Source: an uncultured Gammaproteobacteria bacterium
GTDB taxonomy: Bacteria; Patescibacteriota; Microgenomatia; Levybacterales; GWA1-39-11
Reading direction: 5' to 3'
Assembly (NCBI GenBank): GCA_964409875.1
Contig: CAYPEN010000002.1
Coordinates: forward strand, 274,630 to 338,629
Length of the DNA: 64,000 bases
The position numbers and the translations under genes were made by a program. This document shows, one piece after another, positions 2 to 21,094 of this stretch. How positions within the stretch are numbered: position 1 is the stretch's first letter; each line of letters opens with the position of its first letter. Below the pieces are notes generated by a model that searched no databases, was not told the origin of the DNA, and saw nothing but the letters and a program-made list of their open reading frames with translations.

Positions 2-862
2 GTAAGCGCCAATGACCTTACTCCTATTGAGCATGCAAAAGTGCAAGCCGTGGCGCAGGATTATATCGACTCGTCAATTTCAAAGACGGTAAATGCCCCC
101 AACACCCACACAATTGATGACGTAAAGACACTCTATATGATGGCATATGACATGGGGCTTAAAGGGATTACGTACATGCGGGATGGGTCGCGTCAGGGAG
201 TTTTGGAGAGGGTGGATGAGAAGAAAAAGGAAGAAGAGGTAAAAATCGCGCAAGCAATGCCGATAAGAAAAAGGCCAACGAGTCTTACCGGTACGACACA
301 TGAAACCCAAACGCCTTTGGGAAACACGTTTATCACGATAAATACGGATAGCCAGAACAATCCTTTTGAGATTTTCATTAACTCTGGAAAGTCGGGCTCA
401 GATGTTATGGCGATGTCTGAGGCGTTGGGACGCATTATGTCGATGGTTTTGAGGATGCAGTCTCCTGTTGAGCCACGGGAGAGGATTCGGGAGATGATTG
501 ACCAGCTGACCGGTATCGGCGGCGGACGTTCGGTCGGATTTGGGCCAAATAGAGTGCGTTCTTTGCCCGATGCTGTGGCAAAAGTTTTGGCGGAGCATTT
601 TGAATTTAGGGTGAATGGGCACGTTGCTGACAAAAATCCGATAAAGCCGGTTCTTGTAGATGCTATAAAACAAGAAGAGGTAACTCCTCAAGTGCAGACA
701 GAACAGGTTAGCGTTGCAACACAAAGCCCGTTGCCCATGATGGCCGCTGCCGGACCCGCGTCTCATGCAAATGCCGATTTATGTCCACAATGCGGAGCCG
801 CTGCCTTCGTACACGAAGAAGGCTGTGCCAAATGCTACGCCTGCGGCCACGCGGAGTGTTAG
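2..862 (+). CDS. nrdJ: Class II (adenosylcobalamin-dependent) ribonucleotide reductase, C-terminal part (5' end lies outside the window)
   Basis: The ORF is open from base 2 in the frame of the ORF-track entry 41..862. Motifs ISKTVNAP and YMMAYDMGLKGITYMRDGSR are typical of B12-dependent RNR. The C-terminal zinc ribbon CPQC...CAKC is followed by the redox tail YACGHAEC. Confidence 0.75.
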   Translation, partial: VSANDLTPIEHAKVQAVAQDYIDSSISKTVNAPNTHTIDDVKTLYMMAYDMGLKGITYMRDGSRQGVLERVDEKKKEEEVKIAQAMPIRKRPTSLTGTTHETQTPLGNTFITINTDSQNNPFEIFINSGKSGSDVMAMSEALGRIMSMVLRMQSPVEPRERIREMIDQLTGIGGGRSVGFGPNRVRSLPDAVAKVLAEHFEFRVNGHVADKNPIKPVLVDAIKQEEVTPQVQTEQVSVATQSPLPMMAAAGPASHANADLCPQCGAAAFVHEEGCAKCYACGHAEC

Positions 863-891
863 CTGTGTGGGAGCCAGGCGCAAGGTTTCCT

Positions 892-1005
892 TATGCTTGT
901 GGTCATGCAGAATGCTGACCACAAGTGAGTGATGCCTGCGGCCATGCTGAATGCTAATTCAGCTGGACGAGGGTGAGTGATGCTTGTGGCCACGCGGAGT
1001 GTTAA
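892..1005 (+). repeat. Three tandem stop-terminated copies (892-918, 931-957, 979-1005) re-encoding the RNR C-terminal heptapeptide ACGHAEC with synonymous codon changes
   Basis: Direct reading gives tat gct tgt ggt cat gca gaa tgc tga, gat gcc tgc ggc cat gct gaa tgc taa and gat gct tgt ggc cac gcg gag tgt taa. All three are in one frame, offset from the nrdJ frame, and each is preceded by gtgagtgat in copies 2 and 3. Confidence 0.8.
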
Positions 1006-1151
1006 TTTGACAACTGAATTTTAGGAAATCACGGTGACCCGCCTAGACTCGACGTCTAGTCGAGGCTGGAATTCCGTGGCTGTGCCGCAACTGTATAGTC
1101 AGAAAACGAATACTCCCGAGCAGGAAAAAAAATTACAGACATAATTTTTGT

Positions 1152-1180
1152 AAAACCTCCTTCTCGCAGGAGGTTTTTTT
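1152..1180 (+). terminator. Rho-independent terminator hairpin (aaaacctcct-tctcgc-aggaggtttt followed by a T-run), 12 nt upstream of the next start codon
   Basis: A perfect 10-bp stem with a 6-nt loop is followed by ttttttt. It could terminate nrdJ and/or act as the expression platform of a leader upstream of the adenosyltransferase gene. Confidence 0.7.
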
Positions 1181-1191
1181 GTAGGAAAAAT

Positions 1192-1746
1192 ATGAGCATA
1201 TACACAAGAAAAGGCGATAAAGGGAGCACTTCTTTAGGAAGCGGTGTACGCGTGTCAAAGGACGACGTACGGGTCGAGGCCTATGGAACTGTGGATGAGT
1301 TGAATGCAGTTCTTGGCGTCGCAGGTTCGGAGCTCGTGCACATAAAAGAGGGATACTCCAAGTATTTATTGGAAATTATCCATCAGGTGCAAGACGATCT
1401 GTTTTGCATCGGCTCTTATTTGTCAAACCCGGCAAACGCAAATCTTGTCGAATTGTTGCCGCAACGGACAACTGTTTTTGAGAGATACATCGATGAAATG
1501 ACAGAAAAAATGCCCGAGCTTTCCAACTTTATACTTCCGGGAGGCGGAAAGGCAGGAGCATTCTTGCAGCTTGCAAGAACCGTAAGCAGGCGTGCTGAAA
1601 GAAGACTTGTTTCGCTTTTGAAAAAAGCAAAGATAAATGAGGGAGTGGTAATGTATATCAACCGGCTTTCCGACCTGCTTTTTACCATGAGCAGGTTCTC
1701 AAACCACAACGAAAAACAAAGCGAGACGATTTGGAAACGAAGATAG
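1192..1746 (+). CDS. pduO: ATP:cob(I)alamin adenosyltransferase, PduO type
   Basis: N-terminal MSIYTRKGDKGSTSLGSG...EAYGTVDELNAVLG matches the PduO/MMAB-family signature (YTRTGDxGxTSL, GxxDELN). Its position next to the AdoCbl-dependent RNR fits. Confidence 0.85.
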   Translation: MSIYTRKGDKGSTSLGSGVRVSKDDVRVEAYGTVDELNAVLGVAGSELVHIKEGYSKYLLEIIHQVQDDLFCIGSYLSNPANANLVELLPQRTTVFERYIDEMTEKMPELSNFILPGGGKAGAFLQLARTVSRRAERRLVSLLKKAKINEGVVMYINRLSDLLFTMSRFSNHNEKQSETIWKRR

Positions 1747-3715: not shown

Positions 3716-4104
3716 GGGGATGAATTGAATCGACAGGAACTGTACTTTAAAAACTGCAAGCCGGCAATGACTCAAAGCCGTAAAAAAGGGTCAAAAATAC
3801 ATGCTAACAATACTGTTAGCGGTATAAAGCGGTTCTTCGCGGATCGCATTCCGGATGTAAATCCGGGATTAGGTTACGCGGCATTCGCCTAATACCTGTT
3901 TGCTTCCATTCCGCCTCAAGCTCGGGGAAGCAGGCATCAACCAGCTTGAAAACTTAACGGGGCTGACCGAACCGTTTCGCAAAAGGTCTTAGCTGTTTCA
4001 TTCTGCGTTTGGGAGGTCAGAAACGGCAAAATATATCTCAAACTACGCTTGTAGATGTTTTTGAATATGGTTTTTGGACGCCGGTTCGTTACCGGCCATC
4101 TCCA
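3716..4104 (+). ncRNA. ssrA: tmRNA (SsrA)
   Basis: The 5' end GGGGATGAATTGAATCGACAGG parallels E. coli GGGGCUGAUUCUGGAUUCGACGGG. The 3' end GGACGCCGGTTCGTTACCGGC-CATCTCC-A parallels GGACGCGGGUUCAACUCCCGC-CAGCUCC-A, with the acceptor strand complementary to the 5' GGGGATG including a G3-U pair. An internal tag reading frame ends ...PGLGYAAFA followed by TAA at 3890-3892. Confidence 0.8.
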
Positions 4105-5605
4105 CACCAGTGTTTTTTGAAGTTGCTAAATTACCGATTAGCTTGACAGGATAGGCCAAACTTGCGGTTCCAAAGCCATTCTTGTAGTCATATTCAACTT
4201 TTCCGTTAAAATAAGCGTATAGAACAGCTTTCTTATCGTTCACATTTTCACTTTGCCACATATCAATAGGATTTTTTAGCAGTGAAAATAGTTTTTCCGT
4301 AGCGGTTCCAAATCTTTCGTCATTGTAGGGGTTGGATATTAACTCCATATCAATAGACCTAATCTCTTGAGAGTATTTTTCAATTTCGTTTTCATAAACC
4401 TTAATTAAATCTTCACTTGAGGCTTTAGTTATTCGTTCAAGTAGACTTGAAACTTTTGCTTCTAATTCAACTTTTCTATTTAAGTAAAGTTGTCTAATCT
4501 CCTCGTAGCTATTTTTCTTTAAGTTCCATGCTTCTGTTAACACTAATTTTGCAACGTCTAAAATCGTGTTATCTAACCTAACCTTGTATAATAATGCTTC
4601 GAATTGGTCCTCCATGCTTTTCCTTCCTATAACCTTATACTTGTACTTGCAATACTTATTGATACAGAAATAATTGGGATATCTACGACCATGACGACCA
4701 GTGTTCCAAGATGCTGTAAGAGGCTTATTGCACGAAACACAGATAATATGAGTTCGTAATGGAAAATCACTTGAATAGTCGTGTCTTGTCCATTTTTTCC
4801 CTTTTGACCTTATTCTTTGTTGGACTTTTTCGTAGGTTTCAATTGTTATAATGCCTTCATGATGACCTTTTCGCCTCTCTACACTCCATTTAGGGTACTC
4901 CACGTAGCCTGTATATAGTATTTGCCTAAGTATTCGCTGGGTACCGCTTAATGAAAGTTTTTTAGTTATACCATGCTCTTTATATTTGTTGAGAATAAAT
5001 CTCTGAACATCTTCCTGAGTGTTCAGAATACCCACGGCGTAATTTTCTAATGCAGTTTTAATGATAGAAGCGTATGGTTCGACGGGTTTTAATAGCTTCC
5101 CGTGGATAGGGTCTTTAACAGCTGAGAGGCCCAGGGGTGGAAAAAAGGCCCAGTAGCCCTTCTCTAATCGTGCTTTTTGCTTCTGAATAACCTGTCTTCT
5201 ATTGGATTTACGTTGATACTGATTGCTAACGGCTAACATTAGCTCAGCCATTTCGCTCTCATCACTTTCTTCAAAGTTGAAGTTCAAACATTCTAGTCTT
5301 ACCCCTCTAGAGGAAAACTCCGCCCTAAGTTGGATATGAACTTTAACGTCTCTTGCAAACCGTGATAAATCATCAAATATTATTACGTATTCTTCTAATG
5401 TATGGTTATCGATATATTGGATAAGTTGCTTCATGGCAGGCCTTTCAAATAAACCACCGCTTATACCGTCATCAGGAAATACTGCTTCTACGGGATAACC
5501 TTTTTGGACTGCATGAACCCTGCATCTTTGCTCTTGGGAGCTCAAACCATTACCTTCCTTAACCTGCCTCTGACTAGAAACCCTACAATAGATAAGTGCC
5601 TTCAT
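4043..5605 (-). CDS. Large serine recombinase (serine integrase type)
   Basis: N-terminal resolvase catalytic domain (LIYCRVSSQRQ with the Ser nucleophile), a recombinase domain, a Cys-rich zinc ribbon (ICVSCNKPL...CINKYCKYK) and a C-terminal coiled coil. The last roughly 20 codons overlap the tmRNA T-arm and acceptor. Confidence 0.9.
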   Translation of the reverse strand: MKALIYCRVSSQRQVKEGNGLSSQEQRCRVHAVQKGYPVEAVFPDDGISGGLFERPAMKQLIQYIDNHTLEEYVIIFDDLSRFARDVKVHIQLRAEFSSRGVRLECLNFNFEESDESEMAELMLAVSNQYQRKSNRRQVIQKQKARLEKGYWAFFPPLGLSAVKDPIHGKLLKPVEPYASIIKTALENYAVGILNTQEDVQRFILNKYKEHGITKKLSLSGTQRILRQILYTGYVEYPKWSVERRKGHHEGIITIETYEKVQQRIRSKGKKWTRHDYSSDFPLRTHIICVSCNKPLTASWNTGRHGRRYPNYFCINKYCKYKYKVIGRKSMEDQFEALLYKVRLDNTILDVAKLVLTEAWNLKKNSYEEIRQLYLNRKVELEAKVSSLLERITKASSEDLIKVYENEIEKYSQEIRSIDMELISNPYNDERFGTATEKLFSLLKNPIDMWQSENVNDKKAVLYAYFNGKVEYDYKNGFGTASLAYPVKLIGNLATSKNTGVEMAGNEPASKNHIQKHLQA

Positions 5606-15951: not shown

Positions 15952-16023
15952 CGGGCATGTAGCTCAGGGGTAGAGCGCCATTCTTATAAAATGGATGTCC
16001 TTGGTTCGATTCCAAGCATGCCC
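15952..16023 (+). tRNA. tRNA-Ile, anticodon TAT (UAU)
   Basis: A manual cloverleaf fold gives acceptor gggcatg/catgccc, D-stem gctc/gagc, anticodon stem ccatt/aatgg with loop cttataa, and T-stem cttgg/ccaag with loop ttcgatt. No CCA is encoded. Confidence 0.75.
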
Positions 16024-16071
16024 ACAAAAGCCCCACAGCCAACTTCATGATTGTCTTTTTTTAACGAGCTA

Positions 16072-18898: not shown

Positions 18899-19091
18899 GG
18901 GAGGAGTCGCATGAAATCTCTTTGAGATGTTCTACGACTCTTAGATAAGAAATAAAGGAGGAGTCGCATGAGAAATCTCTTTGAGATGTTCTACGACTCT
19001 TAGATAAGAAACCAAGGAGGAGTCGCATAAGAACCTGGCATAAGACCAGAACCTTGTACGATCCTATTCGTTACACTCGGAGGAGTCGCAT
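18899..19091 (+). repeat. Array of four copies of GGAGGAGTCGCAT (the tRNA-Ser-GCT 5' end) at 58/58/63-nt spacing; the fourth copy is the start of the tRNA itself
   Basis: Copies start at about 18899, 18957, 19015 and 19079. Spacers 1 and 2 are near-identical (gaaatctctttgagatgttctacgactcttagataagaaa); spacer 3 is unrelated. Confidence 0.8.
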
Positions 19092-19169
19092 AGTTGGCCC
19101 ATTGCGGGGGGTTGCTAACCCCCTGAGCTCTTAAACAAGCTCGCGCAGGTTCGAATCCTGTCTCCTCCG
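19079..19169 (+). tRNA. tRNA-Ser, anticodon GCT (type II, long variable arm)
   Basis: Acceptor ggaggag/ctcctcc, 3-bp D-stem gca/tgc, anticodon stem ggggg/ccccc with loop ttgctaa, a roughly 21-nt variable arm, T-stem gcagg/cctgt with loop ttcgaat, discriminator g. Confidence 0.8.
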
Positions 19170-20885: not shown

Positions 20886-21027
20886 TAGGAGAGGTCGCAT
20901 GAAATTTAGCAATGCTAAATATTCTCCGACCTGTTGTGATAAAAAATTTAGGAGAGGTCGCATAACAACCTTGCTTCGCAAGAACGTTGTCCGACTCTTC
21001 TTATTGCATTAGGAGAGGTCGCATAGT
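20886..21027 (+). repeat. Array of three copies of TTAGGAGAGGTCGCAT (the tRNA-Ser-TGA 5' end) at 64/60-nt spacing; the third copy is the start of the tRNA
   Basis: Copies lie at about 20886, 20950 and 21010. The spacers differ but share cgactctt with the spacers of the other tRNA-Ser array. Confidence 0.8.
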
Positions 21028-21094
21028 GGTCGAGTGCAGCGGTCTTGAAAACCGCCAAGCGAAAGCTTCGAGGGTTCGAATCCCTCCCTCTCCG
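21012..21094 (+). tRNA. tRNA-Ser, anticodon TGA (type II)
   Basis: Acceptor ggagagg/cctctcc, D-stem gca/tgc, anticodon stem gcggt/accgc with loop cttgaaa, long variable arm, T-stem gaggg/ccctc with loop ttcgaat, discriminator g. Confidence 0.8.

Follow-up and report, generated by a model that had tools for sequence, protein, structure and literature searches.

Re-encoded C-terminal tails and a stop-codon hairpin behind nrdJ in a Levyibacteriota subclade

Why would the last eight codons of a bacterial gene be written out three more times just behind its stop codon, each time with a stop of their own? This question is raised by a 64,000-nucleotide stretch of contig CAYPEN010000002.1 (the window, always meaning the whole stretch), which opens inside nrdJ, the gene of a class II, adenosylcobalamin (AdoCbl)-dependent ribonucleotide reductase (RNR). 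We find that the arrangement is real, that within the window it is specific to the nrdJ locus, and that it is conserved in one subclade of Levyibacteriota, which belong to the candidate phyla radiation (CPR). The extra tails stand beside damaged ones and alternate with inverted complements that pair with them, and in related lineages the gene ends on different members of the array.

The tail array in the window and in related genomes

The units of the array are called T (eight codons and a stop) and anti-tail, or anti-T (the inverted complement behind a T). The window holds the following features:

2 to 862, plus strand: 3' part of nrdJ (class II, AdoCbl-dependent ribonucleotide reductase), an open reading frame (ORF) in frame 2 that runs off the window start and ends with TAG at 860-862
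782 to 859, plus strand: cysteine-rich C-terminal domain motif CPQC-x10-C-AK-C-YA-C-GHAE-C, from the translation
836 to 862, plus strand: T1, the translated tail YACGHAEC with TAG
863 to 880, plus strand: anti-tail 1, imperfect inverted complement of T1, predicted to pair with 838-854, with GAG UGU UAG in the loop
892 to 918, plus strand: T2, silent copy YACGHAEC with TGA (Y-type unit)
916 to 925, plus strand: anti-tail 2 (TGACCACAAG), perfect predicted pairing with 896-905 inside T2 (inverted repeat I3)
931 to 957, plus strand: T3, silent copy DACGHAEC with TAA (D-type unit), 5' half identical to T1
957 to 978, plus strand: anti-tail 3 (ATTCAGCTGGACGAGGGTGAGT), predicted to pair with T3; its 3' end gives the V-S of a VSD prefix
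979 to 1005, plus strand: T4, silent copy DACGHAEC with TAA, the last unit, without an anti-tail of its own, 3' half identical to T1

An earlier note on this DNA had described three extra stop-terminated tails, and their coordinates, stops and frame were confirmed: T2, T3 and T4 all lie in frame 1, at a single offset from nrdJ, the starts of T2 and T3 being 39 nt and those of T3 and T4 48 nt apart. The synonymous nature of the differences was also upheld, as over the seven shared codons T2, T3 and T4 depart from the gene tail at 7, 4 and 2 positions, every one at codon position 3; T1 and T2 thus differ at all seven shared wobble positions, and in the Tyr codon besides. The VSD prefix said to be common to T3 and T4 is present as a shared sequence (GTGAGTGAT, V-S-D, at the copies at 931 and 979), but it is not a conserved linker peptide, being the 3' end of an anti-tail followed by the first codon of the next unit. 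A degenerate pattern for ACGHAEC (GCNTGYGGNCAYGCNGARTGY) has four matches in the 64-kb window against a mean of 0.01 in shuffled sequence, none of 100 shuffles giving four, and among the 78 window ORFs of at least 100 amino acids (aa) nrdJ alone has a downstream peptide-level copy of its C-terminus.

The gene ends in ...CPQCGAAAFVHEEGCAKC-YACGHAEC-TAG. Its membership in class II NrdJ is by homology and includes the RNR large-subunit catalytic barrel and the TSCPD domain: PF02867 and PF12637 are found on homologues of window 41-859, and the source names of these homologues read adenosylcobalamin-dependent ribonucleoside-diphosphate reductase. Relatives of the protein, 96 to 27% identical, come from Levyibacteriota and other metagenome-assembled genomes (MAGs); 84 related loci were found in genome contigs, the closest in MAGs of Candidatus Levyibacteriota (CPR/Patescibacteria). 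AdoCbl dependence of the window enzyme is suggested by its context, a PduO-type adenosyltransferase gene and riboswitch-like elements downstream.

The C-terminus of the window protein, CPQC-x10-CAKCYACGHAEC*, fits the pattern CxxC...C-xx-C-xx-C-x5-C ending at the last residue, and the motif EGC..C..C....C* is kept in nearly all nrdJ loci. The spacing agrees with that of the six cysteines in the cysteine-rich domain (CRD) of NrdJd from Stackebrandtia nassauensis (PMC5704485); in the model set out there, four cysteines bind zinc and the other two, the terminal one included, are the redox pair. By homology with that model, the redox pair of the window protein would be the cysteine preceding the AKC motif together with the terminal cysteine, and the eight-residue unit would include a single zinc ligand and only half of the redox pair (PMC5704485). 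With so few of these residues, the unit would not be a self-contained thiol shuttle. The NrdJd work concerns the protein, and its accessible part mentions neither a repeat of tail-coding DNA nor a hairpin at the stop codon (PMC5704485); no description of repeated RNR tail codons was found in the open-access literature searched.

The scan covered 80 loci from genomes, 41 from metagenomes and another 20 contigs from exact-protein look-ups; loci are cited below by L numbers. Similar arrays lie downstream of nrdJ in about 20 independent assemblies, drawn from NCBI MAGs, JGI, ENA and Logan, all of one Levyibacteriota (CPR) subclade. Extra stop-terminated tails stand behind nrdJ in L002, L003, L004, L006, L007, L008, L015, L081-83, L121, L123-125, L132, L134/135 and L139/140, and damaged tail copies are found in L001 and L010. 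The comparison of homologous loci that the earlier note had proposed as a check shows that related genomes carry repeated tails and not a single tail only. Among viral contigs scanned for the tail pattern there were four single matches and no arrays.

The same comparison bears on another explanation, also raised in the earlier note, namely that an assembler had concatenated strain variants of the nrdJ 3' end. The window does derive from a MAG, and no second assembly spans its four-copy array: two look-ups for assemblies of the same strain yielded Logan contig L122, which starts at window 1168, downstream of the array. However, the same architecture with orthologous spacers recurs in many independent assemblies, and different sources or runs yielded the same array twice for L006 and L125 (identical over 770 nt) and for L015 and L121 (identical over 1055 nt), with one difference in 2700 nt between L134 and L135. 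Every junction of the window array has a counterpart in an independent assembly: T1-spacer-Y-type copy in L003, L004, L006 and L124; Y-type copy-ccacaagtga-D-type copy in L134/135; and copy-anti-tail-D-type copy-riboswitch leader in L002 and L132. The spacers are, moreover, structured inverted complements with covariation, a pattern that concatenation would not give. The array is almost certainly not an artefact of assembly.

The hairpin around the stop codon

Folding shows that the spacer directly 3' of each stop is an imperfect inverted complement of the preceding tail. In the window, the predicted pairing joins 838-854 with 863-880, 895-905 with 916-926, and 934-952 with 957-974. When window 830-1030 is folded, T1 and anti-tail 1 form 15 pairs, G-U pairs included (z = -4.2), and the stop-spanning fold of nrdJ, at -25.8 kcal/mol, is the strongest of the 78 window ORF ends, the next reaching -15.4 and the median -6.35. 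T2 with anti-tail 2 and T3 with anti-tail 3 give -20.1 and -20.7 kcal/mol, and the latter hairpin shares its architecture with the T1:anti-tail hairpin of L002, L007, L081, L082 and L132. The architecture ..(((((.((.((.((((((((....)))))))).)).)).)))))... recurs in L002, L003, L004, L007, L081, L082 and L132, where the energies range from -20 to -28 kcal/mol. The apical loop contains the stop codon or adjoins it, and purine-purine mismatches occur at position 2 of the Cys, Gly and His codons. Across loci, the median stop-spanning fold has 18 pairs and -24.7 kcal/mol where an array is present, against 9 pairs and -12.8 kcal/mol in 99 nrdJ loci without one. Hairpins comparable to those of the array loci are found in L017 and L090, where there are no direct tail copies.

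Covariation was counted on an alignment of ten T:anti-T units (alignment A1). Standard pairs occupy 94.1% of its cells, compared with 27-40% when the partners are slid, and six pairs change on both sides, a number reached by 1 of 500 shuffles. These six correspond to the wobble positions of the Tyr, Cys, Gly, His, Ala and Glu codons of the tail; since all the compensatory pairs fall at wobble positions, the anti-tail tracks the synonymous drift of its tail. It also matches the Ser codon of its own tail, with GCAAGAG facing TCT in L008, and in L015 and L139 CAACTG or CGACTG facing AGT. The abundance of G-U pairs points to sense-strand RNA as the form in which the hairpin exists. A different reading of the spacers, as decayed copies of the upstream FVHEEGCAKC codons, was replaced by that of inverted complements once the folds and the covariation had been seen.

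Because the anti-T follows the synonymous changes of the T, the hairpin around the last eight codons and their stop is the conserved element, and it is probably functional. It may protect the 3' end of the nrdJ message or direct its processing, or it may control how translation terminates.

A further inverted repeat, AATTCAGCTG / CAACTGAATT (window 956-965 and 1011-1020), brackets the last tail copy and shows a compensatory change in L002 (AATTCGGCTG / CAACCGAATG); the long-range stem that it would form is not conserved in L001, L132 or L081 and was set aside.

Origin and fate of the silent copies

Nineteen silent copies from 15 loci were each compared with the gene tail of their own genome. 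Their differences fall on codon positions 1, 2 and 3 in the numbers 8, 6 and 80 (P = 4e-25), and those at the wobble position comprise 62 transitions and 18 transversions. Thirteen copies are intact, all of them stop-terminated, and their stops vary only among TAA, TAG and TGA. Where a lineage has a tail peptide of its own, the copies mirror it (YSCGHAEC in L008 and L139, YSCGYAEC in L015), and in L008 and L015 the gene and the copy draw on different Ser codon families, TCT against AGT. The other six copies are damaged: Cys to Tyr and Glu to Arg in L001; Gly to Ser in the second copy of L006; AEC to LKS in the third copy of L006/L124/L125; Gly to stop in L010; Cys to stop in L081/83, with a further Cys to Tyr and a 3-nt insertion in L123; and Ala to Thr in L134. 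Such nonsense, missense or indel damage in 6 of 19 copies is what is expected without direct selection. The codon-level pattern from which the earlier note had suggested peptide-level selection is real and extends over 15 loci. Mutagenesis by a diversity-generating retroelement (DGR) was rejected, the differences not being adenine-specific.

The end of the gene has not stayed on one unit. In L001, the closest relative of the window (96% identity), nrdJ ends with the unit that is copy 2 in the window (TGA-ccaca flank), and only a damaged last copy is kept; in L002 and L132 the gene ends at the position of window T3, with T4 and its 3' flank shared, and window T4 with this flank is orthologous to the second copy of L002 (55 of 70 nt). 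Window 892-957, which spans T2, anti-tail 2 and T3, is identical at 58 of 66 nt to the functional gene end and next copy of L134/135. This homology between L134 and the window starts exactly at the first tail codon, and upstream of it the CAKC codons of L134 stand opposite the window spacer. The exchange of tails as cassettes, one of the mechanisms proposed in the earlier note, is therefore supported on an evolutionary time scale, with the copy-2 unit ending the gene in L001 and L134/135 and the copy-3 position doing so in L002 and L132.

Mosaic sequences are found as well. L124 and L006 agree at 119 of 120 positions over the array and at roughly 70-90% in the flanking nrdJ and pduO, and the second copy of L004 becomes unrelated to that of L003 right at its stop. 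In the window, T3 and T4 each have half-identity to T1, in the 5' and the 3' half respectively; the copies of L082, L010 and L139 stand 1-2 nt from their own T1 despite unrelated spacers. The idea that arrays are generally more conserved than their flanks was dropped: it is true for L124 against L006 only and not for other pairs, and is read as a recombination mosaic, not as nucleotide-level constraint.

Two side observations may be added. In strains L139 and L140, whose PduO proteins are the same, nrdJ shows 8 substitutions clustered within 37 nt (-579 to -543 from the stop), apparently a small patch of recombination inside the gene. In L004 and L130/131 only, a conserved ORF of 62-63 aa lies between the nrdJ tail, or a tail copy, and the riboswitch (MII...W-C-E-x-LNEK...NSLASGTATGPGF; L004 3857-4045, L130 1182-1373, L131 500-691); no Pfam match above threshold was found for it, and its position at the tail copy suggests that tail units are also junctions for the gain and loss of small genes.

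From these observations we infer how the arrays arose. At about an even chance, the extra tails are untranslated cassettes that came from duplication at a quasi-palindrome and are shuffled and refreshed by recombination. The module would be a T with an anti-T directly after its stop, the two forming a long imperfect hairpin in sense-strand RNA, and the order T, anti-T, T would come from template switching or slippage of replication at this quasi-palindrome. Later, T copies of one genome or of related lineages would undergo unequal recombination and short gene conversion, through which units would be gained or lost and the gene body joined to another T. Each T would recently have been the real C-terminus in some lineage, or have been overwritten from one that was, and this would be why the copies are codon-clean and stop-terminated yet divergent at wobble positions; copies that are not refreshed would decay.

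Expressed loci with silent partners are known elsewhere. In pilE/pilS, an expressed locus stands beside promoterless partial copies with which it exchanges sequence by recombination, and the exchange generates protein variation. The nrdJ cassettes are unlike these in that all intact cassettes encode the same peptide and the DNA alone differs.

The closest documented analogue is icd/icdC at the attachment site of e14, where recombination with a downstream C-terminal fragment yields a functional chimera, first noticed in resequenced populations as a cluster of synonymous changes in icd (PMC13626634). As in icd/icdC of Escherichia coli (e14, phage 21), the 3' end of a gene is re-encoded and a second C-terminal fragment lies downstream, and here too direct 3'-end copies have recombined into functional chimeras (L001 and L134/135, ending in the copy-2 unit, and the mosaic copies). 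In E. coli, however, the copies flank a 15-kb integrative element and were made by site-specific integration, whereas the nrdJ copies are 12-34 nt apart, number up to four and are accompanied by hairpin-forming inverted complements; no integrative element with an integrase lies between them, the spacers being 12-34 nt long (50 nt in L139).

For the hairpin the likeness is to template switching, which creates hairpins and keeps their stems paired (PMC8794818). The nrdJ array resembles template-switch mutations in having an adjacent inverted complement and multi-base 'compensatory' changes that keep the stem paired, and its direct-inverted-direct layout is what template switches can leave. Those hairpins were described for RNA genes (PMC8794818), whereas an arm of the nrdJ hairpin is formed by the essential last eight codons, with the stop in the loop, and the persistence of extra direct copies with codon-like conservation goes beyond the template-switch cases. 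The array combines known kinds of element, namely re-encoded gene ends, template-switch hairpins and gene-conversion families.

Several points weigh against our account. The wobble match of most silent copies to their own gene tail is about what chance gives (about 2.8 of 7 positions, by eye), yet codon positions 1 and 2 are intact, so an account free of selection needs conversion and nrdJ allele replacement to be frequent relative to point mutation; each of the two processes is documented by a few cases. Between orthologous silent copies we counted by hand about 18 wobble and about 8 non-wobble changes, the latter clustered in three damaged copies, and the stops change only to other stops; this wobble excess and the stop-to-stop changes look like purifying selection in place. 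The copies of L008 and L015 match the tail peptides of their lineages through a different family of Ser codons. As to the hairpin, template switching alone could produce part of the apparent covariation. With the wobble positions at chance and positions 1 and 2 intact, some probability must accordingly be left to accounts in which selection keeps the silent tails, either as a repair kit of recoded spare C-terminal cassettes or as partners in a translation-sensing RNA switch; taken together we hold these possible but doubtful. A repair kit would act on frequent breaks or deletions, caused by the T:anti-T quasi-palindrome or by a nuclease that attacks the conserved tail DNA; a downstream T would then, by annealing or by recombination, give back a working nrdJ with other wobble bases in its tail. 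It would account for a codon-level pattern that persists despite saturated wobble positions and for stops that give way only to other stops; L001 and L134/135 are viable deletion derivatives in which a downstream copy ends the gene, palindromes are on record as fragile sites in the accessible part of the literature, and T1 and T2 of the window differ at every shared wobble and in the Tyr codon as if nucleotide dissimilarity were favoured. But six of the 19 copies are damaged, such hairpins also occur in subclades that lack any spare copy (L017, L090), the neighbourhood of the locus showed no nuclease gene, and such second-order selection would need a high rate of usage, and on balance we find a repair kit unlikely.

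In an RNA switch, the downstream T would compete with the translated tail for the anti-tail (pairing 1:2 against 2:3), so that how the downstream leader folds, and how far the riboswitch-controlled adenosyltransferase is expressed, would depend on whether the end of nrdJ is being translated. The layout T1, anti-T, T2 does permit two mutually exclusive hairpins. The alternative helix anti-T:T2 keeps the register and reaches -13 to -20 kcal/mol, 88% of the cells of its alignment (A2) can pair as against 30-45% with slid partners, and no promoter-like site was found between nrdJ and pduO. In the same alignment, however, the anti-T:T2 helix shows no compensatory changes and its measures do not rise above shuffles; T2 wobbles often lack a partner while second-codon positions without one are conserved, the reverse of what a constraint on RNA alone would give, and T2 of L008 cannot pair with its anti-tail in the Ser region. 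The distance from array to riboswitch varies, L139/140 have, by eye, no riboswitch motif between the array and the next gene, and the T-run that a terminator under switch control would have does not follow the T:anti-T hairpins. We judge such a switch improbable. In trp-type attenuators, the middle of three segments pairs with either neighbour and the first is covered by the translating ribosome. The nrdJ array likewise has three consecutive segments of which the middle can pair with either neighbour; unlike an attenuator, it has no U-run terminator hairpin at the array and no covariation for the second pairing, and its segment 1 is the end of a large enzyme gene, not a leader peptide.

Translation of the copies, whether by readthrough, frameshifting, hopping over the stop-codon hairpin or as tiny ORFs, would provide NrdJ with alternative or extended C-termini, or release free tail peptides; the predicted peptides would be ...GHAEC-LAVWEPGARFPYACGHAEC, PQVSDACGHAEC, FSWTRVSDACGHAEC and MSDACGHAEC. 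Alternative C-termini reached by recoding or frameshifting were one possibility put forward in the earlier note, and in favour of translation are the synonymous-only variation, the stop at the end of every intact copy, the strong hairpin at the stop codon, a feature of some recoding sites, the GTG codons in frame at window 925 and 973, before T3 and T4 (in-frame starts are present at other copies too), and the second copy of L003 and L004, which is in frame 0 directly behind the stop. The frames nevertheless vary: among the 13 intact copies the offset from nrdJ is 0 in one, 1 in five and 2 in seven, so that the fixed relation across relatives expected of programmed recoding is lacking. For five intact copies (L003 T2, L003 T3, L004 T2, L008 T2, L015 T2) no in-frame ATG, GTG or TTG lies between the preceding in-frame stop and the copy, and independent micro-ORFs were rejected for this reason. 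An in-frame stop closes the path 2-6 codons upstream of the copy in L015, L008 and L003 T3, just two codons being open in L015, and the last 40 codons of 14 array loci contain no slippery heptamer of the form X_XXY_YYZ. With varying frames and no slippery site, a single frameshift or readthrough mechanism was rejected. The eight-residue unit would also, by homology, come without its partner redox cysteine and without three of the four zinc ligands (PMC5704485), and 6 of 19 copies are damaged. Taken together, these points make translation of the copies very improbable.

Ribosome hopping deserves a word of its own, as the best-known bypass has a similar setting. In gene 60 of phage T4, a compact hairpin holds the stop that directly follows the last codon to be decoded, and the matching sequence lies a few tens of nucleotides downstream. 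The nrdJ array differs in having no conserved take-off and landing geometry and variable frames, and for a ribosome leaving the final Cys codon the next one on its way would be the UGC inside GAUGC, which is out of frame with the copy; such a hop gives no new product and would not usefully change the protein, and it was rejected as the main reading. An antisense ORF across the array (859-993, minus strand) was discarded as well, its peptide not being conserved between copies.

Some features of the reading frames are recorded here in their own right. That only 1 of the 13 intact silent copies is in frame 0 may hint at selection against copies that readthrough could reach, although the effect is weak and the copies do not count as independent cases. 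In window 712-932, both alternative frames run without a stop through the final 100-150 nt of nrdJ and on into the array (ORFs 765-932 and 781-918), and the alternative frame that carries the first downstream copy is also open in L001, L002, L006, L007, L081 and L082 (54-85 codons); these open frames may merely reflect the composition of the Ala/Pro/Gln-rich linker.

Downstream context and meaning of the array

Behind the array the window continues with the following features:

1016 to 1113, plus strand: cobalamin-riboswitch-like aptamer (AdoCbl-II, 25.0 bits against a gathering score of 36.5, E = 0.0035)
1152 to 1183, plus strand: terminator-like hairpin with T-run (inverted repeat I5; terminator scan match 1159-1173, then TTTTTTT)
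1192 to 1746, plus strand: gene of the PduO-type cob(I)alamin adenosyltransferase (ORF; PF01923 on the identical protein P0121)
1735 to 1855: second AdoCbl-like element (AdoCbl, 30.2 bits against a threshold of 50)
1853 to 2926: ORF of 357 aa, with no Pfam family above threshold

Of the terminator-like sites only that at 1159-1173 is a good one, and it is downstream of the aptamer. Neither of the two elements reaches the gathering threshold for Rfam CL00101, and we call them riboswitch-like and not confirmed members; they precede the PduO adenosyltransferase gene and the 357-aa ORF respectively, and may represent a divergent CPR variant of the AdoCbl aptamer that current models miss. In the first of them, a palindromic insertion of about 32 nt (CCCGCCTAGACTCGACGTCTAGTCGAGGCTGG, window 1038-1069) occupies a hairpin loop and is near-identical in L124, and a short loop, GAAAATCC or GTAAATCC, stands at this position in L001, L002 and L006. 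The 357-aa ORF, behind an AdoCbl-like element of its own, is kept beside pduO in relatives, and its C-terminus is zinc-ribbon-like (CPSC...CLHCGSDKVAC) and ends in Cys, reminiscent of the NrdJ tail.

Where the riboswitch follows nrdJ directly (L016, L019, L136, L137), the Tyr-Ser-Cys-Gly codons (ACAGUUGUGGC) are complementary to the riboswitch core GCCGCAACUGU. A pairing of tail and core, predicted for L016, L019 and L136, was considered and put down to coincidence, as the altered core of L008, L013 and L014 is not followed by the tail. Ordinary features of the window include a tmRNA gene (3716-4107, 118.8 bits) and tRNA genes at 15953-16024, 19079-19169 and 21012-21094.

The final residues of NrdJ are needed in every catalytic turnover; their codons sit in a conserved mRNA hairpin, and replacement ends lie just behind. 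If the silent copies are relics only, then template switching, conversion and recombination between lineages can mimic peptide-level selection in untranslated DNA, the real 3' end of a gene can jump between cassettes, and the array would be a warning for dN/dS-based gene calling and for the discovery of small ORFs in metagenomes. If the copies or the hairpin are selected, they would point to a level, so far unrecognised, at which CPR bacteria control or protect the expression of RNR; these bacteria depend on salvaged cobalamin, and very few regulatory systems have been described for them. A repair kit or an RNA switch, if either were true, would be a previously undescribed way to protect or to read out the last codons of an essential gene.

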